Shown in pieces: positions 4,458 through 13,411 of a DNA stretch of 32,000 nt. The notes under the pieces were generated by a model. That model saw nothing but the letters and a program-made list of their open reading frames with translations. It did no database searches and had not been told where the DNA came from. Source of the DNA: Methylorubrum extorquens (GTDB lineage: Bacteria; Pseudomonadota; Alphaproteobacteria; Rhizobiales; Beijerinckiaceae). The first letter of the stretch is position 1. Each line of letters begins with the position of its first letter. The stretch lies in the NCBI GenBank assembly GCA_900234795.1, contig LT962688.1, positions 3,330,001 through 3,362,000 of the forward strand. The letters are read 5' to 3'. Position numbers and translations under genes: made by a program.

Positions 4458-5576
4458 ATGTTCCTGTTCAACAATTCTCCCGTCGCCACCCGCGAGACGG
4501 CCGCCCCGGCGCGGGCCGCCGCGGCGAGCGGAGAGGTCGTCGATGCGATCCGCGAAGGGGCGCAGACGAGCGGCGTCGGCTTCGATTACCTGCTCGCCAC
4601 GGCCCAGCGCGAATCGAGCCTCAACCCTTCGGCTAAGGCGAGCACCTCCACCGCGACCGGCCTGTTTCAGTTCATCGAGCAGACCTGGCTCGGCGTCATG
4701 AAGAATGCCGGGCCCAAGCTCGGCCTCTCCTCCTACGCCGACGCGATCTCCTCGAGCGCGGATGGCCGCTACAGCGTGGCGGATCCGGCGGCGCGGCAGG
4801 CGATCCTCGACCTGCGCCGCGATCCCAAGGTCTCGGCGGCGATGGCGGGCGCGCTGACGCAGCGCAACGGCGAGGCGCTGAGCGCGGCGCTCGGGCGTGA
4901 GCCGAATGCGGGCGACCTCTACGCGGCCCATGTCCTCGGGGCGAAGGGCGCGAGCGCCCTGATCGCGTCGGCGCAGGCGAACCCGTCCCGGCCCGCCGCC
5001 CTCGACATGCCGGAGGCGGCCGCCGCCAACCGCAGCCTGTTCTACGACCGCGCCGGGCGCCCGCGCAGCGCCTCCGAACTCTACGGATTGTTGAGCCAGA
5101 CCACCACCGGCGTGGCGACCCCGGTCGCGACCGCCGCGGCCGACGCGAACCCGCCGACGTCCTACGCCTCGCTGGAGGGCGGCCTGCGCTCGCTGTTCCA
5201 GACCGACCGGCGCCAGGGCGCGGTCTCGGAAGGGGTGGCCAAGCTCTGGCAGAACCGCGCCGCCGCAAGCACGGCGGAGCGCAGCGGCCCGACCTACTTC
5301 CCGCGCTCCGACGCCTGGAACGAGACCGAGAGCACGGCCGCGCCGAGCGCCGCCAGAAGCGACATCACGACGACGGACTCGGCCGTGGCGGACACCGCGG
5401 CCGCCTCGGAGGCCATCGTCGTGCCGCTGCCGCCGCGCCGGCCCGCCGGACTGACGGCGATGGCGGCAGCGACCACCACCTTCATGGCCGGCCCGACGAC
5501 GGACCGGCCGCCCGCCACACCTGCGAAAAACTCGCTGTTCGATCCCTCCGCCTTCCGGCTCAGGAGCGGCTCATGA
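4458..5576 (+). CDS. lytic transglycosylase (SLT domain) protein with long Ala/Pro/Thr-rich C-terminal region
   Basis: SLT family signature ATAQRESSLNPSAKASTSTATGLFQFIEQTW (catalytic E-S, GLxQ). I prefer the ATG at 4458; a GTG at 4404 is an alternative start. The stop overlaps the next gene's start (ATGA at 5573-5576). Confidence 0.75.
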   Translation: MFLFNNSPVATRETAAPARAAAASGEVVDAIREGAQTSGVGFDYLLATAQRESSLNPSAKASTSTATGLFQFIEQTWLGVMKNAGPKLGLSSYADAISSSADGRYSVADPAARQAILDLRRDPKVSAAMAGALTQRNGEALSAALGREPNAGDLYAAHVLGAKGASALIASAQANPSRPAALDMPEAAAANRSLFYDRAGRPRSASELYGLLSQTTTGVATPVATAAADANPPTSYASLEGGLRSLFQTDRRQGAVSEGVAKLWQNRAAASTAERSGPTYFPRSDAWNETESTAAPSAARSDITTTDSAVADTAAASEAIVVPLPPRRPAGLTAMAAATTTFMAGPTTDRPPATPAKNSLFDPSAFRLRSGS

Positions 5577-7315: not shown

Positions 7316-7900
7316 CTAGGCCTCGGCCGACGCCCAAGGCCGCATCGCCTGCGGTCCGACGATGTCGAGCGGCGGCTCGAAATCGCTGGCCCGGCCGCGC
7401 ATCGCCTCCGGCGATTCCGGGAAGCCGCTGCGGCGGCCATAATCGCTGCGGACCCGGCGCGAGGGACGAAGCGGCGCCTCCGACAGGTTGTGGGCGCAGA
7501 CCACATCGAGGGCGGTGACGCCGGCCAGGGCCATCAGCGCGATCATCGCGTTGCCCCGTTTCGGGTTGGTCTCCTCCAGGGCCGGCAGCACCGTGGCGAT
7601 ATCGACGGCATCACCCCCGACCCGCCCCCAGATCCAGGGCGTGGGATCCTGCGTGCCGAGGATGCCGACGCCGGTGACGATCTCGCGCACGCCGTAAGCT
7701 TGGATGACGGAAGTCAGCTCGGGCTTTCCGAGCCAGCGGGCGATCGCCGCGCCGCCGACGATCTCGGCGGCGCCGAGACCGAGTGAGAACCAGCCGAGTC
7801 CCTGGGCGAGCCCTTCCGTCGCCGGATCGGGCCGTCGTCGGGAATCAGGCGCGATCCGAGCGAGCGCGCCGCCGTTCGATCTGTCGCTGTCGCGGGCCAT
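7316..7900 (-). CDS. hypothetical membrane protein
   Basis: ATG at 7900 is preceded by a strong GGAGGTG. It has two to three hydrophobic segments (GLGWFSLGLGAAEIVGGAAI, VREIVTGVGILG, AMIALMALAGVTALDVV). It lies downstream of, and co-directional with, the Zn-ADH gene. Confidence 0.6.
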   Translation of the reverse strand: MARDSDRSNGGALARIAPDSRRRPDPATEGLAQGLGWFSLGLGAAEIVGGAAIARWLGKPELTSVIQAYGVREIVTGVGILGTQDPTPWIWGRVGGDAVDIATVLPALEETNPKRGNAMIALMALAGVTALDVVCAHNLSEAPLRPSRRVRSDYGRRSGFPESPEAMRGRASDFEPPLDIVGPQAMRPWASAEA

Positions 7901-7934
7901 GACACCTCCGCTTTCGAGATTGAATCGGGTCATA

Positions 7935-7971
7935 CCAAATCCGGTTGATCCCTTCGGGATGGCGGATTTGG
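7935..7971 (-). other. extended hairpin (9-bp + 5-bp stems) in the ADH / membrane-protein intergenic region
   Basis: ccaaatccg-gttg-atccc-ttc-gggat-gg-cggatttgg. The outer 9-bp arms are perfect. Confidence 0.5.
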
Positions 7972-8000
7972 GCTTCGCTCAAGCGCCGCGCGGGCTGACC

Positions 8001-8037
8001 GATACGGTTCCCGCTTTGATCAAGCGGAAACCGTATC
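8001..8037 (-). terminator. hairpin immediately after the ADH stop (possible terminator or REP-like element; no clear T-tract)
   Basis: gatacggttcccgctt-tgatc-aagcggaaaccgtatc: 16-bp arms with one mismatch, beginning 6 nt downstream of the stop at 8043. Confidence 0.35.
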
Positions 8038-8042
8038 AGTCG

Positions 8043-9215
8043 TCAGGGCCGCAGCACGACCTTGATGCAGTTGTCCTTCTTGTCCCGGAACGTCCGGTAC
8101 AGCTCGGGGCCCTGCTCCAGCCCGGCCCGGTGGGTGATGACGAAAGAGGGATCGATCTGGCCCTCCTCGATCCGCCGCACGAGGTCGTCGGTCCAGCGGT
8201 TCACGTGGGTCTGCCCGGCGCGGATCGTCAGGCCCTTGTTCATCAACGCGCCCATCGGCATCTTGTCGACGAGGCCGCCATAGACGCCGGGAATCGAGAG
8301 GATGCCGGCGGGACGGCAGACATAGATCATCTCCCGCAGCACCGAGGCGCGATCGCTCTCCAGCATCATCGCCTGCTTCACCCGGTCATAGACCTGCTCG
8401 ACGGCGCGGGGCGAATGCGCCTCCATGCCGACCGCATCGATGCACTTCTCCGGACCCTTGCCGTGGGTCAGCTCGTTCAGGCGCTCGACCACGCTCTCGC
8501 GGCTGTTGTCGATGACGATCGCACCACCCGCCCGCGCCATGTCGAGGCGCTCCGGCACGCTGTCGATGCACACGACCTGCTTGGCGCCGAGCAGGATCGC
8601 CGAGCGGATCGCCATCTGCCCGACCGGGCCTGCGCCCCAGATCGCCACGGTGTCGTGCGGCTGGATGTCGGCCTGCACCGCCGCCTGCCAGCCGGTGGGG
8701 AAGATGTCGCCGAGGAACAGCACCTGCTCGTCGGTGAGCGAATCCGGCACCTTGATATGCGTCTTGTCGGCGAACGGCACCCGGACATATTCCGCCTGCC
8801 CGCCGGGATAGCCGCCGGTGAGATGCGAGTAGCCGAACAGGCCCGCCGTGCCGTGGCCGAACACCTTGGCGGCGAGATCTCGGTTGCGGTTCGAGCGCTC
8901 GCAGACCGAGAAGAAGCCGCGCTTGCACTGGTCGCACTCGCCGCAGATGATCGTGAACGGGATGACGACCCGGTCACCCTTCTTCAGCGCGCCGTTCAGG
9001 CCGCGGCCGGTCTCGACCACCTCGCCCATGAACTCGTGGCCGAGGATGTCGCCCTTCTTCATCGCCGGGATGAAGTGGTCGTAGAGATGGAGGTCCGAGC
9101 CGCAGATGGCGCAGGCGGTGACCTTGATGATCGCGTCGCGATCGTCTTCGATTTCGGGATCGGGAACCGTATCGCAGCGGATGTCCTGGGTGCCGTGCCA
9201 GACGAGGGCTCTCAT
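8043..9215 (-). CDS. zinc-dependent alcohol dehydrogenase family (glutathione-independent formaldehyde-dehydrogenase-like subgroup)
   Basis: ATG at 9215 is preceded by GGGAGAG. MRALVWHG...ACAICGSDLHLY...GHEFMGEVVETG...CGECDQCKRG (catalytic and structural Zn motifs) and a Rossmann motif IWGAGPVG are present. Confidence 0.9.
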   Translation of the reverse strand: MRALVWHGTQDIRCDTVPDPEIEDDRDAIIKVTACAICGSDLHLYDHFIPAMKKGDILGHEFMGEVVETGRGLNGALKKGDRVVIPFTIICGECDQCKRGFFSVCERSNRNRDLAAKVFGHGTAGLFGYSHLTGGYPGGQAEYVRVPFADKTHIKVPDSLTDEQVLFLGDIFPTGWQAAVQADIQPHDTVAIWGAGPVGQMAIRSAILLGAKQVVCIDSVPERLDMARAGGAIVIDNSRESVVERLNELTHGKGPEKCIDAVGMEAHSPRAVEQVYDRVKQAMMLESDRASVLREMIYVCRPAGILSIPGVYGGLVDKMPMGALMNKGLTIRAGQTHVNRWTDDLVRRIEEGQIDPSFVITHRAGLEQGPELYRTFRDKKDNCIKVVLRP

Positions 9216-9485: not shown

Positions 9486-10940
9486 TCACGCCGCGAGGGC
9501 GTTGGCCCGCCGCAGGTCATCGACGAAGGCCTGATAGGCCGCCGCCTTCGCCGCCTCATCGGGCAGGCGCAGCAAGTAGGAGGGGTGGACCGTGATGAAG
9601 CCCGCGAACGGCCGCCCGAACTCGGCGGGGCCGCGGGCGCGGGTGATCGGGATCTGCTTGCCCGTCAGCGACAGCACCGCGGTGGCCCCCAGCGCCACGA
9701 CGAGTTTGGGGGCGACGAAGTCCAGCTCCTTCTCGAGCCACCAGCGGTAATGGCTCACCTCGCCCGCGGTTGGCTTCTCGTGGATGCGGCGCTTGCCGCG
9801 CAGCGTGAATTTGAAGTGCTTGACCGCATTCGTGAGGTAGGCCTCCCCCCGGTCGATCCCCGCATCTTCGAGTGCGCGGGAGAGAAGCTGCCCCGCCGGC
9901 CCGACGAAGGGTTTGCCCTGACGATCCTCCTGATCGCCCGGCTGTTCGCCGACGAAGGCGATCCGCGCGCCGACCGGCCCTTCGCCGAGGACGGCCTGGG
10001 TGGCGCCGGGCACCAGCGGTTCGGAACGGGCGATGATCGCGTTGAGGGCTTCCAGCGAATCCGGCTCGTCCTGGGCCATCTTCGCCACGGCGCGGACGGG
10101 GTCACGCTTGACCGGCATCGTCGGCTCCTTCTCGATCATCGCCTGCGCGCGGGCGCTCGCAGCCCGTACAAGGGCGGGAATCGCGGCCGTCTCCGGCATG
10201 TTCCGCCAGTACTTGCGGGGCATCTCGGCGCGCATGGCATCGAGGTTGAGCCGGGCCGGATTGAAGGTGCTCTCGTAATAGTCGCGCCAACCGGCCTCGA
10301 AGCCGTCGCCCTCCGGCACATCCTCGCGGCGGCCGGGCGGGCCGAAGCAGAGCGTCCCGTCCCAATGCGCCGACCCTTCCGGCGTCAGGATCGACCATGT
10401 CAGCCCACGGAAGCGATCCACGAAGAAGGGCGCGGCGGCCCCCAGGATGTGGTGGTCCGGCTCGAACCACGCCACGAAGCGCTCGGCTCCTTCCCCCGGC
10501 ACCCGGCGGAAACGTAGGAAGGCGTGCATCTTGTGCAGGTCGCGACCGATCGCCTTGCGCATCCGGTGGAGACGGTGGACGAGCGGATCGCTCAGGACAT
10601 CCATCAGCGCCCGCTCGCCGTGCAGGACGCGCCAGAGCAGGGCGTAGAGCAGGCCGTAGCGCTCGGGATCGCGGTGGGGCACCACCATCGGGATCAGCTC
10701 GGTCACCGCGCGGGGAAGCCGCAACGGCGGGCCGTCTACGGAGCCGGACTCGGCGCCGAACAGGCTCGGAGCCTCGGTCTGCCAGACGATGTTTTTCGGC
10801 GGGATCTCGGCCGCGATCAGGCGGCGCGCCGCGGTGCGAAACCCCGACAGATCTGCGCCGGGGGCGAGGCTGATGACATGGATGGCAGCGCATCGCCCTC
10901 CCCCGGCAGAGGCGGGAGAGTTTTGTGCGGGCTCGCCCAT
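9486..10940 (-). CDS. udgX: DUF4130-like N-terminal domain fused to a UdgX-type (family-4-like) uracil-DNA-binding/glycosylase domain
   Basis: ATG at 10940 shares one base with the radical-SAM stop (TGATG). The C-terminal domain carries GEQPGDQED (9936-9950 encodes GEQPG), KRRIH (9780-9794) and HPSYLLR. The N-terminal part, about 250 aa (DPERYGLLYALLWRV...MHAFLRFR...FVAWFEPDHHIL...NPARLNLDAMRAEMP), resembles the TIGR03915/DUF4130 putative DNA repair domain. Confidence 0.85.
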   Translation of the reverse strand: MGEPAQNSPASAGGGRCAAIHVISLAPGADLSGFRTAARRLIAAEIPPKNIVWQTEAPSLFGAESGSVDGPPLRLPRAVTELIPMVVPHRDPERYGLLYALLWRVLHGERALMDVLSDPLVHRLHRMRKAIGRDLHKMHAFLRFRRVPGEGAERFVAWFEPDHHILGAAAPFFVDRFRGLTWSILTPEGSAHWDGTLCFGPPGRREDVPEGDGFEAGWRDYYESTFNPARLNLDAMRAEMPRKYWRNMPETAAIPALVRAASARAQAMIEKEPTMPVKRDPVRAVAKMAQDEPDSLEALNAIIARSEPLVPGATQAVLGEGPVGARIAFVGEQPGDQEDRQGKPFVGPAGQLLSRALEDAGIDRGEAYLTNAVKHFKFTLRGKRRIHEKPTAGEVSHYRWWLEKELDFVAPKLVVALGATAVLSLTGKQIPITRARGPAEFGRPFAGFITVHPSYLLRLPDEAAKAAAYQAFVDDLRRANALAA

Positions 10941-12151
10941 CAGAACAGACTCAACTGCTCGGCCGGCTCCGCGAGCTTGGCCCGCAGATCGAGACGGTCG
11001 GTCAGCGTCGTCGGCCGGAAGTCCTCGGCGATGAGGAAGGGCCGCGCCCGCTTCAGCCCCGAACTCAGCCGGGCCACGTCGTCGAGGCGCAGGCGGCCAT
11101 GGCGGCGCGCCTTGATGATGGCATCGACCGCCCGTGCCCCGAGTCCCGGCACCCGCAGCAGCATCTCGCGGTCGGCGCGGTTCACATCGACGGGAAAACA
11201 GTGGCGGTTCTTGAGCGCCCAGGCGAGCTTGGGGTCGATGTCGAGGGCGAGCATGCCGTCCTCGGAGGCCCCGGCTACGTCGTCGGGGGAGAACTCGTAA
11301 TACCGGATCAGCCAATCGGCCTGATACAGCCGGTGCTCGCGCCGCAGCGGCGGCGCCTGCGGCGGCAGGGCCGTGGAGGCGTCGGGGATCGGGCTGAAGG
11401 CCGAGTAGTAGACGCGCTTGAGGCCGTAGGTGCCGTAGAGCAAAGCGGATTTACGGATCATCGCCTCGTCGGTGGTGGCGTCGGCCCCGACGATCACCTG
11501 CGTCGATTGCCCGGCCGGCGAGAAGCGGCGGCGCTCCTCCTTGGCCTGGACGATGCGCTCGCCGATCTGGCCCATCGCGCTCTCGATCGCCGCGCCGTCC
11601 TTCTCCGGCGCGAGGCGGTTCAGGCTCGCCTCCGTTGGCAGTTCGAGGTTGATCGAGAGCCGGTCGGCGTAGAGCCCCGCCTCCTCGATCAGCCAGGGGC
11701 TCGCCTCGGGGATCGACTTCAGGTGGATGTAGCCGCGAAAACCGTGCTCGCGCCGAAGCTTCTTGGCGACGCGGGTCAGCATCTCCATCGTGTAGTCCGG
11801 CGAGCGGATGATGCCCGAGGAGAGGAACAGCCCCTCGATGTAGTTGCGCTTGTAGAACTCGATCGTCAGCGTCACGACCTCCTCGACCGAGAAGCGCGCG
11901 CGGGCGACGTTCGAGGAGCGCCGGTTCACGCAATAGGCGCAGTCGAACAGGCAATAGTTGGTCAGCAGGATTTTGAGCAGCGAGACGCAGCGCCCGTCCG
12001 GCGTGTAGGCGTGGCAGATGCCGGCGCCCGTGGTCGAGCCGAGCCCGTCCGCGCCGGCCTTGCGCTTGGGCGCACCGGAGGACGCGCAGGAGGCGTCGTA
12101 TTTGGCGGCATCCGCAAGGATGCGCAGCTTGCGCGCGAGCTTCTCGTCCAT
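10940..12151 (-). CDS. putative DNA modification/repair radical SAM protein (TIGR03916-like) with C-terminal helix-hairpin-helix
   Basis: MDEKLARKLRILADAAKYDASC... matches the usual N-terminus of this family. CLFDCAYC (CxxxCxxC) is encoded at 11930-11953. An HhH-like LLRVPGLGARAVDAIIKARR lies near the C-terminus. The alternative GTG at 12208 would run into the osmC terminator. Confidence 0.85.
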   Translation of the reverse strand: MDEKLARKLRILADAAKYDASCASSGAPKRKAGADGLGSTTGAGICHAYTPDGRCVSLLKILLTNYCLFDCAYCVNRRSSNVARARFSVEEVVTLTIEFYKRNYIEGLFLSSGIIRSPDYTMEMLTRVAKKLRREHGFRGYIHLKSIPEASPWLIEEAGLYADRLSINLELPTEASLNRLAPEKDGAAIESAMGQIGERIVQAKEERRRFSPAGQSTQVIVGADATTDEAMIRKSALLYGTYGLKRVYYSAFSPIPDASTALPPQAPPLRREHRLYQADWLIRYYEFSPDDVAGASEDGMLALDIDPKLAWALKNRHCFPVDVNRADREMLLRVPGLGARAVDAIIKARRHGRLRLDDVARLSSGLKRARPFLIAEDFRPTTLTDRLDLRAKLAEPAEQLSLF

Positions 12152-12152
12152 C

Positions 12153-12167
12153 GAACGGAAGATGAAC
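12153..12167 (-). promoter_or_regulatory. candidate alphaproteobacterial LexA (SOS) box, GTTC-N7-GTTC
   Basis: The plus strand reads GAACggaagatGAAC, so the coding strand reads GTTCATCTTCCGTTC, ending 2 nt before the ATG at 12151. A possible -35/-10 (TTGATC at 12186-12181, N16, CATCTT at 12164-12159) overlaps it. Confidence 0.55.
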
Positions 12168-12209
12168 GCACGCGCGCCGGGATCAATGCGGCGCGTTAGC
12201 CTGCGCACC

Positions 12210-12249
12210 GGAAAAGCGCCCTCCCGCCGGCGCAGCGCGACGGGAGGGC
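12210..12249 (-). terminator. rho-independent terminator of osmC
   Basis: On the minus strand, GCCCTCCCG-(14 nt loop)-CGGGAGGGC is followed by GCTTTTCC. The 9-bp GC-rich stem is perfect and starts 10 nt after the osmC stop. Confidence 0.7.
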
Positions 12250-12258
12250 CGGGGCGGC

Positions 12259-12690
12259 TCAGCTCGGGTTCAGCGTCTTGTCGAGGGTGATCTCGGCGTT
12301 GAGGAGCTTCGAGATCGGGCAGCCCTTCTCGGCATTGCCGGCGAGTTCATCGAACTTTGCCCCATCGATGCCGGGGATCACCGCCTTGAGGGTGAGGGCC
12401 GACTTCGTGACCTTGAAGCCGTCGCCGTCCTGCACGAGCGTGACGACCGCCTTGGTGTCCAGCGAGGTCGCCTTGAGGCCGGCGGACTGGAGCTGGAAGG
12501 CGAGCGCCATGGTGAAGCAGCTCGCATGCGCGGCGGCGATCAGCTCTTCCGGATTGGTGCCGGGCTCGTTCTCGAAGCGGGTGTTGAAACCGTACGGATT
12601 GTCCGAGAGCACGCCGGATTGCGTCGTGATCTTGCCCTTGCCGGTCTTGCCGTCGCCTTCCCAGTGGGCGCTCGCGTGGCGGTCGGTCAT
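12259..12690 (-). CDS. osmC: OsmC family peroxiredoxin
   Basis: ATG at 12690 is preceded by GAGGA. HWEGDGKTGKG...TNPEELIAAAHASCFTMAL...EKGCPISKLL contains the two conserved OsmC cysteines. Confidence 0.9.
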   Translation of the reverse strand: MTDRHASAHWEGDGKTGKGKITTQSGVLSDNPYGFNTRFENEPGTNPEELIAAAHASCFTMALAFQLQSAGLKATSLDTKAVVTLVQDGDGFKVTKSALTLKAVIPGIDGAKFDELAGNAEKGCPISKLLNAEITLDKTLNPS

Positions 12691-12775
12691 GCTGTCGTCC
12701 TCGTCGTCTTCAAGCGGAAGCGATCCGCGTGGCCTTCGACGTGGAGCGGTGGACGGTCATGTCGAGGGGCAGCCC

Positions 12776-13411
12776 TCACTCTTGGTTGATGGATGTCTCA
12801 TCCTCGTCTGCTTCGCTGGCGAGCACGGCCTTGGCGAGCGCGTAGGAGAAACCGGCGCGCGCCATGGCGGCGAGATCGCGCTCGCGGTTGGCCTCGCGGG
12901 TTTCCGGCCGGCGATAGGGGCCGAGGCGGCGGCGACGGGCATAAGCAAAGGCCGCCCGCTCCTCGGTATCGGCCTCGCCCTGTTGCGTCCCGGCCGCCTC
13001 GTCCTCCTCGGCGAGGGTCGCCGCGATCGTCTCCCGGTCGATCCCCTTGGCGGCGAGCCGCGCCTGCGCCTGCCGGGTCGAGGTGCCGCGCCGCCTCAGG
13101 CCGCGCAGGCGGGCGGCGGCAAAGCGCGCATCGTCCACGAGCCCGGCCTTCTGCGCGCGGGCGACCGTCTCCTCGATCAGGCCGGCATGCGCGCTCGCAT
13201 CCTCGTCGCGGGAGCGGCAACGCCGATCGATGCGGCGGGCGAGCACCCGGCGCAGCATCTCCGACGAGGCGCCGTAGCGGTCGAGATAATGCGTCGTGAC
13301 CCGTTCCAGCCACGCGGCGGTGACCGGCGGCTCGGGCCTTGCTTCACGTCGCCCATCATGTCGCCCATCTGTTGGGCCATCACGTCGGCTTGAAACGGTT
13401 CGCGCGATCAT
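12776..13411 (-). CDS. recX: RecA regulator RecX
   Basis: WLERVTTHYLDRYGASSEMLRRVL...GLVDDARFAAARLRGLRRRGTSTRQAQARLAAKGIDRETI...RERDLAAMARAGFSYALAKAVL shows three-helix repeats typical of RecX. ATG at 13411. Confidence 0.85.
   Translation of the reverse strand: MIARTVSSRRDGPTDGRHDGRREARPEPPVTAAWLERVTTHYLDRYGASSEMLRRVLARRIDRRCRSRDEDASAHAGLIEETVARAQKAGLVDDARFAAARLRGLRRRGTSTRQAQARLAAKGIDRETIAATLAEEDEAAGTQQGEADTEERAAFAYARRRRLGPYRRPETREANRERDLAAMARAGFSYALAKAVLASEADEDETSINQE

Follow-up and report, generated by a model that had tools for sequence, protein, structure and literature searches.

Whether a radical S-adenosylmethionine (SAM) protein and a UdgX-type uracil-DNA glycosylase (UDG) domain encoded side by side act together on damaged DNA, and in what way, is the question raised by two overlapping genes in Methylorubrum extorquens (contig LT962688.1, positions 3,330,001 to 3,362,000; this whole 32-kb stretch is referred to as the window). 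The first gene encodes the radical-SAM protein (rSAM), and the second encodes a fusion of a DUF4130 domain with the UdgX-type domain. A first-pass annotation, made from the sequence alone, had proposed that strict coupling of the two genes reflects a two-component pathway that is not described. Our analysis indicates that the pair is a conserved SOS operon under predicted LexA control, in which the UdgX-type domain is an addition to a core of rSAM and DUF4130. We see a little better than an even chance that this LexA-repressed operon encodes a DNA-lesion-processing complex, in which the capture of uracil or an abasic (AP) site would be combined with a radical step on DNA.

Conservation of the operator and of the gene pair

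The sequence GTTC-N7-GTTC, which is the alphaproteobacterial LexA-binding motif as defined previously (PMC8565304), is present immediately upstream of the rSAM start codon, and it is the sole exact match of the 32-kb window. The number of matches expected by chance was 0.76 per window, and 55% of shuffles held at least one, so that a single box is not significant, and we therefore tested its conservation across loci. Genomes were scanned with a 10-sequence rSAM alignment (A3), used instead of a 32-sequence alignment (A2) that was too diverse for locus finding, resulting in 80 loci, nearly all from Alphaproteobacteria, plus one from Xanthomonas. Of the 79 loci whose upstream DNA was long enough, 78 had an exact box within 150 nt upstream of the orthologous rSAM start, compared with a background of 0.0025 per 165 nt per strand in the same loci, the sole locus without it being that of the gammaproteobacterial Xanthomonas. 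The median gap between the box and the start codon was 2 nt in the 78 loci, with a spacer consensus of ATATAAK, and the box was oriented as GAAC-N7-GAAC on the coding strand in 73 of them and, less commonly, as in the window in 5. This recurrence of the exact box in the same place, against so low a background, indicates that the pair is a conserved SOS operon under predicted LexA control. Because the operator adjoins the ATG and its spacer resembles a -10 hexamer, the operon mRNA is probably leaderless, and the promoter probably overlaps the operator.

By eye, no LexA-type motif was recognised upstream in the loci from Xanthomonas (L067), Planctomycetes (L085), and Verrucomicrobia (L086). The Cheo box, which is of the Gram-positive type (GAAC-N4-GTTC), was found upstream in 24 of 75 loci of the distant UDG-less subfamily described below, with a background of 0.003. 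In one locus (L087, 8781-13227), the pair is directly followed by lexA (Peptidase_S24), a weak ImuA-like gene, imuB (IMS), and dnaE2, which represent the SOS mutagenesis cassette. As for the literature, a passage in the study that defined the motif refers to a two-gene operon COG1573-COG4277 as a "putative UDG-based repair system" that is SOS-regulated in Bacteroidetes, Verrucomicrobia, and Alphaproteobacteria, citing da Rocha 2008 (Caulobacter) and Erill 2016 for this regulation (PMC8565304), and in Acinetobacter, the genes for rSAM and TIGR03915 belong to the DNA-damage response (PMC12392091). The view of the first-pass annotation that the module is related to DNA damage is supported by both the conservation of the box and these reports; the LexA operator at the start codon, which it did not include, is the strongest functional clue.

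To define what belongs to the operon, gene order was compared in 83 rSAM loci from Alphaproteobacteria, Xanthomonas, Planctomycetes, and Verrucomicrobia. Wherever the sequence extended far enough (79 of 79 informative genome loci), a DUF4130 gene followed rSAM directly on the same strand, and the UdgX-type domain was fused in frame to DUF4130 in 78 of the 83. The gene junctions were short overlaps of the TGATG type (-1) in 26 loci, as in the window, and of the ATGA type (-4) in 28, with other short junctions in 16 and an inserted gene or spacer in 13. Two loci, L013 and L015, carry DUF4130 without UDG. In a distant subfamily of about 40% identity (80 loci, from anaerobes and from gut and sediment metagenomes), DUF4130 was found downstream in 62 loci, most of the others being on truncated contigs, and UDG was found in none of the 80. 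The mycobacterial UdgX, which represents the only clade studied biochemically, is, in turn, encoded by a stand-alone gene; its neighbours are GntR, hydrolase, and decarboxylase genes, and neither rSAM nor DUF4130 was found within 8 kb of it. Because of the distant UDG-less subfamily, L013 and L015, and the orphan mycobacterial UdgX, the core of the system is the rSAM and DUF4130 pair, to whose adaptor protein the UdgX-type domain has been added in particular lineages. Thus, the pairing of rSAM with DUF4130 proved to be general, whereas the strictness of the coupling to UDG, as put forward in the first pass, failed in both directions, and this makes it unlikely that the basic function of rSAM is purely to resolve a UdgX crosslink.

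The pathway can also hardly be called undescribed. The linkage is encoded in TIGRFAM names (rSAM_link_UDG and SAM_7_link_chp), it was noted by Aravind et al. in 2013 (PMC3765255), and it is contained in the SOS papers and in a 2026 preprint based on AlphaFold 3. The gene pair is, accordingly, a typical member of a family already delineated by TIGRFAMs/NCBIfam, Aravind 2013, the SOS papers of the Erill group, and the 2026 preprint: it passes all three cut-offs of the TIGR03916/TIGR03915/TIGR03914 set (COG4277-COG1573), and it has the same gene order, fusion, and LexA box as 78 other alphaproteobacterial loci, with nothing essential differing. The present analysis adds numbers for how well the LexA operator abutting the rSAM gene is conserved, separates the core of rSAM and DUF4130 from the UdgX-type domain joined to it, and shows that the characterised UdgX is an orphan, that the crosslinking His does not vary in the operon setting, and that the clade of the window has lost the Fe-S cysteines.

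Domains of the two proteins

The second protein had been read as a DUF4130-like domain joined to a UDG fold, and this was borne out by matches to TIGR03915, TIGR03914, PF13566, and PF03167; the hidden Markov model (HMM) searches that had been suggested as checks (TIGR03914, TIGR03915, TIGR03916, and PF13566) all gave matches far beyond chance. The 484-aa protein is 100% identical over its full length to an annotated protein of Methylobacterium sp. Leaf121, which already carries a UdgX family annotation, and its relatives are annotated as "UdgX family uracil-DNA binding protein." The UDG domain matched TIGR03914 with 298.5 bits (cut-off, 189.95), compared with 240.5 bits for P0121, a protein like the UdgX of Mycobacterium smegmatis (MsmUdgX), and matched PF03167 with an E value of 1e-30 and MsmUdgX structures (e.g., 6AJO) with an E value of 5e-43 at about 50% identity. 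UdgX proteins are characterised by motif A GEQPG with Gln, an R-loop KRRIH with the crosslinking His, and motif B HPS(S/A)(L/V)(L/V)R (PMC10359453), and the GEQPG, KRRIH, and HPS elements reported in the first pass were all found, the first two at the positions that it had given. The assignment to canonical family-4 UDG (TIGR00758) was rejected, as the score of 107.3 bits is below the cut-off of 125.3, motif A has Gln rather than Ala or Gly, and there is no Cys.

Mutagenesis of MsmUdgX has indicated that E52, D56, D59, F65, N91, K94, R107, H109, and H178 are important (PMC10776899), and the alignment placed all nine residues in the window domain. Furthermore, GEQPGD, R107, and H109 were invariant in the 79 operon-linked UDG domains (79 of 79), and HPS was nearly so; this invariance indicates, at the level of sequence, that the operon context selects for the residues defining covalent capture. 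The covalent chemistry of UdgX is established (PMC10359453, PMC4787834), and the SDS-resistant covalent complex with uracil-containing DNA is known only for MsmUdgX (PMC10359453, PMC4787834). Comparison of identity ranges puts mycobacterial UdgX at no greater distance from the operon-linked domains (median, 47% identity) than that between these domains themselves (median, 52%).

A feature that the first-pass annotation did not mention is that the window domain contains no Cys at all, the positions of C24, C27, and C120 of MsmUdgX, which represent its Fe-S cysteines, reading S-E-(gap) and HYRWW. These cysteines are kept in 67-68 of the 79 operon-linked domains, and the 11 loci without them are L005-L012, L014, L052, and L057, namely, a Methylobacterium-Enterovirga-Zavarzinia group together with L052 and L057. 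The window thus belongs to a minority clade, and the loss appears to represent at least two or three independent events. By its sequence, the C-terminal domain has all that is needed for UdgX-type excision and His-mediated capture, except the Fe-S cluster.

The DUF4130 domain matched TIGR03915 with 188.9 bits (cut-off, 112.25) and PF13566 with 128.9 bits (cut-off, 27; E, 2e-37). Its AlphaFold2 model was of moderate confidence (predicted local distance difference test [pLDDT], 73), and the Foldseek matches were weak, with E values of 0.015 or worse and template modelling (TM) scores of 0.2-0.27, none being significant; 38 of the top 50 of these weak matches, including all of the first 15, were DHH/DHHA1 family proteins, such as NrnA, family-II pyrophosphatase, and RecJ. 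Membership in the DHH/DHHA1 phosphoesterases (RecJ, NrnA) was rejected because no fold match was significant and the likeness is in shape only, and the literal DHH at D162-H163-H164 was rejected as a nuclease motif because it is not conserved across the DUF4130 family. The residues conserved in both subfamilies are Arg, aromatic residues, and Pro (F141, R143, F173, R176, W218, R230, and P241). The 2026 preprint likewise found no catalytic residues in DUF4130, and the DHH-type fold likeness agrees; it also predicted, with AlphaFold 3, a confident DUF4130:rSAM interface in a Lachnospiraceae pair. Three single-chain proteins of 666-729 aa (P0243, P0244, and P0252) unite Radical_SAM, HHH, and DUF4130, which is Rosetta-stone support for a complex, unless these chains arose artefactually, by frameshift or by read-through between overlapping genes. 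Taken together, DUF4130 is probably a degenerate DHH/DHHA1-like, non-catalytic nucleic-acid-binding adaptor that docks on rSAM. Because DUF4130 lies next to the rSAM gene in every informative genome locus, most of the junctions overlap, single-chain fusions exist, and the interface has been predicted, the two proteins are very probably made together and form a predicted complex through DUF4130.

The rSAM protein matched TIGR03916 (rSAM_link_UDG, COG4277) over nearly its full length with 551.2 bits (cut-off, 343.5; E, 1.6e-165), and it contains the Pfam domains Radical_SAM, Fer4_12, and HHH_3. The CxxxCxxC motif and the C-terminal helix-hairpin-helix (HhH) pointed out in the first pass were both located, the former as CLFDCAYC. 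In the 32 diverse homologues of A2, C67 and C74 were invariant and C71 was present in 31; within HhH, P335, G336, and R349 were invariant and G338 was present in 31. The conservation of HhH, together with the Arg and aromatic residues kept in DUF4130 and the weak DHH/RecJ-like fold matches, suggests that the complex would bind DNA. An N-terminal Cys triad was also observed. In the closer subfamily (A4, 66 sequences with at least 56% identity and one distant row), C22 and C55 were invariant and C46/H47 was present in 65 of 66 rows, whereas in the diverse A2 alignment, C22 was found in 9 of 32 rows (with a gap elsewhere), C46 in 16 (with Tyr in 12), and C55 in 20. The triad may, as a conjecture, be a candidate auxiliary metal or cluster site, and any link to UDG is a correlation only.

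In the AlphaFold2 model of rSAM (pLDDT, 87.6), a partial TIM barrel precedes several helices and the HhH module, and residues 22-40, including C22, are modelled with a pLDDT below 50. The best fold matches of its core were HydE, HydG, ThiH, BioB, LipA, MiaB, viperin, and PFL-AE, and a sequence search of the PDB gave no solved relative. The family is large, comprising 878 clusters at 50% identity (E < 1e-30). The label "SplB-like" for rSAM was rejected, as there was no match to the NCBIfam SplB model and no spore photoproduct lyase in the PDB sequence search or among the top 50 folds, so that the label is not supported, by sequence or by model, beyond the common radical-SAM superfamily.

Proposed mechanism, alternatives, and known systems

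In the preferred reading, which builds on the observed family memberships, operator, coupling, catalytic and crosslink residues, and core-and-accessory architecture, LexA would be bound to its operator in the undamaged cell and would block the promoter. RecA-stimulated cleavage of LexA would then give rise to a probably leaderless mRNA, from which the TGATG overlap would provide the two proteins in matched amounts. DUF4130 would dock on rSAM and, with the HhH module, would grip DNA, probably a single strand or a flipped-out nucleotide. The UdgX-type domain would find uracil and cut the glycosidic bond, and His387 would be linked covalently to the abasic sugar, which would cap a breakable AP site in single-stranded gaps of the SOS type and, at the same time, tether the rSAM partner. 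Finally, rSAM would reductively cleave SAM, and the 5'-deoxyadenosyl radical would take a hydrogen from DNA at or next to the captured site, resulting in lesion reversal, sugar processing, or release. What we infer in this scheme are the physical complex, uracil capture by a domain without Fe-S cysteines, and, most of all, what the radical step acts on and what it yields.

Several findings weigh against this proposal. A mutation of C27 inactivated MsmUdgX (PMC4787834) and the window domain is without the Fe-S cysteines, so that uracil activity is here only predicted. The rSAM and DUF4130 pair occurs without UDG in a whole subfamily, and the radical step is hence not generally dependent on a UdgX adduct; conversely, mycobacterial UdgX functions as an orphan gene. 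The rSAM fold has no close solved relative, the best TM score being about 0.4, and its chemistry is therefore unreadable from homology. A consensus scan gave no sigma-70-like promoter for the operon. The literature searched gave no biochemical study of the pair, in line with the statement of the first-pass annotation, and no paper with both "UdgX" and "radical SAM"; DUF4130, COG4277, and the TIGR numbers were met there only in comparative, predictive, or transcriptomic papers.

The existence of the UDG-less subfamily argues that rSAM has a DNA substrate of its own, and this makes the main rival the idea of two activities in one regulon, which we nevertheless regard as unlikely on balance. According to this idea, rSAM and DUF4130 would directly reverse a lesion of their own by radical chemistry, much as spore photoproduct lyase does; the lesion could be, e.g., one that UV or radicals cause in a pyrimidine or sugar. 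The UdgX domain would handle uracil or AP sites separately, its fusion serving only co-expression or co-localisation. That the core pair exists and is LexA-boxed without UDG, that UdgX works alone in mycobacteria, that L085 adjoins a photolyase gene, and that Aravind et al. named rSAM "SplB-like" (PMC3765255) would all be in accordance with it. However, UDG is fused to the very DUF4130 adaptor and is kept so in Alphaproteobacteria, Xanthomonas, Planctomycetes, and Verrucomicrobia, the crosslinking His does not vary among the operon-linked domains, which suggests that tethering matters, and no specific similarity to spore photoproduct lyase was found by sequence or fold. The same UDG-less subfamily leads us to rate as improbable the main idea of the first-pass annotation, in which UdgX would crosslink deliberately and rSAM would exist to reverse or cleave the crosslink. 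The operon is tightly coupled in the clade of the window, the UdgX adduct is extremely stable and needs a route of removal, and Escherichia coli lacking RecA, RecB, RuvA/RuvC, DinB, or UmuDC grew poorly with MsmUdgX and Ugi (PMC4787834); nevertheless, the distant loci, as well as L013 and L015, have no UDG to be resolved, the orphan mycobacterial UdgX has no rSAM nearby, and a 1:1 suicide protein that needs a second enzyme for its release would be costly.

The remaining alternatives concern purposes other than repair. Damage-induced DNA modification or mutagenesis, which we consider very improbable, would have rSAM modify a base, e.g., by thymine or cytosine chemistry, and uracil excision provide abasic templates for SOS translesion polymerases, on the model of deaminase, UNG, and translesion synthesis in eukaryotic hypermutation. 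The position of the pair next to lexA-imuA-imuB-dnaE2 in L087 and a cytidine/dCMP-deaminase-type open reading frame (ORF) inside the operon in L062 and near it in L086 are consistent with such a role, and Aravind et al. proposed a mutagenesis-related thymine modification (PMC3765255), but these associations are single cases among about 85 loci, a covalent UdgX adduct would block a polymerase rather than feed it, and no signature of methyl or sulfur transfer was seen, although no test aimed at one was made. Hardly credible, in our view, is a function in anti-phage defence or as mobile cargo, in which a viperin-like rSAM and a uracil-DNA sensor would act against U-containing phage DNA. UDG-type proteins can act on U-DNA phages, and viperin is among the weak fold matches of rSAM. 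However, neither protein matched a PADLOC family at an E value of 0.01 or better, the window is a housekeeping chromosomal context, 146 of 164 plasmid records with rSAM are large non-mobilizable replicons, only 10 of 50,697 phage records match, being mostly unannotated metagenome fragments, and the promoters carry LexA boxes; the defence and mobile-element readings were rejected on the PADLOC, plasmid, and phage results. Nearly all of the plasmid records are secondary replicons of Alphaproteobacteria (Phaeobacter, Paracoccus, and Azospirillum), suggesting housekeeping of the chromid type.

The preferred reading, that of a lesion-processing complex, also has a bolder form, which is rather unlikely in our estimation. 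It may be that the UdgX-type adduct is a programmed intermediate, in which the DUF4130-UdgX protein nails rSAM to the abasic sugar in SOS-induced cells and the radical then processes the sugar or releases the protein. The AP site might thereby be cleaved by the radical or repaired, or a DNA-protein crosslink might be reversed enzymatically. If so, DNA would be repaired by a radical chemistry of a new kind, the physiological role that UdgX has long lacked would be found, and the orphan gene of mycobacteria would be a leftover that had broken away from the module.

Compared with known systems, the window domain is like MsmUdgX in its identity, in GEQPG with Gln, the His of KRRIH, and HPS, and in the fact that both pass TIGR03914. 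MsmUdgX, however, stands alone as a protein of about 210 aa that keeps the Fe-S cysteines and lacks an rSAM or DUF4130 neighbour, whereas the window domain makes up the C-terminal third of a fusion with DUF4130, contains no Cys, is coupled to rSAM, and is under predicted LexA control. Spore photoproduct lyase (SplB, COG1533), which acts on DNA and is SOS-regulated in several phyla, resembles rSAM as an SOS-linked radical-SAM enzyme, but the rSAM family has the HhH module and an obligatory DUF4130 partner. By analogy, the proposed capture would be like that of SRAP (HMCES/YedK), an SOS-associated protein that is covalently bound to an abasic site and shields it in single-stranded DNA, and Aravind et al. 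placed SRAP, ImuB-C, and this rSAM module in one contextual network (PMC3765255); the fold and chemistry are unrelated, however, with an N-terminal Cys thiazolidine in SRAP compared with a His-C1' link after excision in UdgX. MiaB/RimO, LipA, BioB, and HydE/HydG/ThiH represent the best folds for the rSAM core, and several of them use a second N-terminal or auxiliary cluster, but the identity is 10-20% and rSAM passes none of their family HMMs. The 2026 preprint compares the position of DUF4130 with that of the MiaB TRAM domain.

The existence of the module will be unsurprising to specialists. UdgX is used widely as a tool in uracil mapping, base editors, and DNA-protein conjugation (PMC10359453), and the UdgX papers examined (e.g., PMC4787834 and PMC10776899) do not mention the operon, the fusion, or a radical-SAM partner; the UdgX literature had not linked the protein to the SOS radical-SAM module. 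With this link, the role of UdgX and that of a widespread SOS radical-SAM enzyme become one directly testable question, and the rSAM family would be only the second radical-SAM family in DNA repair, after spore photoproduct lyase.

The locus, its surroundings, and inserted genes

The coordinates of the features are listed in Table 1. The TGATG overlap was as given by the first-pass annotation. The rSAM start is likely to be the ATG adopted here rather than an upstream GTG at 12208, because the homologues start at a position equivalent to MD..KL..L..AAKYD and the LexA operator falls inside the extension from the GTG.

Table 1. Features of the operon and its upstream region in the window
Feature	Position	Strand	Basis
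Radical-SAM gene (TIGR03916, rSAM)	10940..12151	-	ATG 12151, stop TGA 10942-10940, 403 aa
N-terminal Cys triad C22, C46 (with H47), C55 of rSAM (candidate site)	11987..12088	-	Alignments A2, A4
CX3CX2C motif CLFDCAYC (C67, C71, C74), radical-SAM [4Fe-4S] ligands	11930..11953	-	Sequence
Helix-hairpin-helix DNA-binding module, aa 321-352, peptide LLRVPGLGARAVDAII at 11114-11161	11096..11191	-	Pfam HHH_3, E 4e-5
Stop/start overlap TGATG (translational coupling)	10938..10942	-	Sequence; rSAM stop overlaps ATG of fusion gene
DUF4130-UdgX fusion gene	9486..10940	-	ATG 10940, stop codon 9486-9488, 484 aa
DUF4130 / TIGR03915 domain, aa 30-251 of fusion	10188..10853	-	HMM
UdgX-type UDG domain, aa 254-478 of fusion	9507..10181	-	TIGR03914, alignment to MsmUdgX
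Motif A GEQPG (GEQPGD at aa 331)	9936..9950	-	Sequence
R-loop KRRIH, aa 383-387, crosslink-position His387	9780..9794	-	Sequence
Motif B HPS (HPSYLLR at aa 452, Tyr at S/A position)	9579..9587	-	Sequence
Predicted LexA operator, alphaproteobacterial SOS box GTTCATCTTCCGTTC	12153..12167	-	GTTC-N7-GTTC, 1 nt upstream of rSAM ATG
GC-rich hairpin and short T-run, probable terminator after upstream OsmC gene	12211..12252	-	Sequence, computed fold

The window has a G+C content of 70%, and the neighbourhood consists of chromosomal housekeeping genes, including those for an OsmC peroxiredoxin (12259-12690), a Zn-dependent dehydrogenase, glutathione reductase, rpiA, argG, a GGDEF-EAL protein, and a Ctp protease. 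The hairpin after the OsmC gene is a probable terminator and would represent the upstream limit of the SOS operon, although the consensus terminator scan did not call it because it has only 4 T. Because this hairpin with its T-run follows osmC, the rSAM/DUF4130-UdgX pair would have its own promoter in the approximately 60 nt before the rSAM start. A weak RecX-like ORF (12776-13411, minus strand; 65 bits compared with a cut-off of 258 bits) shares the strand of the operon and is the second gene upstream of it, the OsmC gene being in between.

Genes inserted into or near the operon were observed in some loci. In five Sphingomonas-type loci (L047, L054, L069, L070, and L083), a hemerythrin gene (about 170 aa; PF01814, E 3e-17) is present between rSAM and DUF4130-UDG, in the interval from the rSAM stop (about 7220) to the start of DUF4130 (about 7700-8240), and its product may protect from oxygen or repair the Fe-S cluster of rSAM in aerobes. 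The deaminase-type ORFs (PF00383) mentioned above are located at about 7900-8270 (plus strand) between the operon genes of L062, from a Fulvimarina metagenome-assembled genome (MAG), and 4 kb downstream at 12542-12985 (plus strand) in L086, a Chthoniobacterales contig; such an ORF beside a uracil-capturing protein may be a coincidence or a hint of programmed deamination. In L022, from a Rhizobiaceae MAG, an ORF that by eye is PIN-domain-like (VapC-type) lies on the opposite strand between rSAM and DUF4130-UDG (4520-5358, minus strand). Finally, in L127, L133, L144, L145, and L153, which are of the gut Firmicutes type, an ORF of about 40 codons specifies a hydrophobic peptide whose tail is rich in Arg (M..G..I.ILG....V.RLID.I.RP.RRRR). 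This ORF stops at the rSAM start codon or a few nt short of it, with the Cheo box further upstream in most such loci, and it could encode an SOS-induced small membrane peptide.

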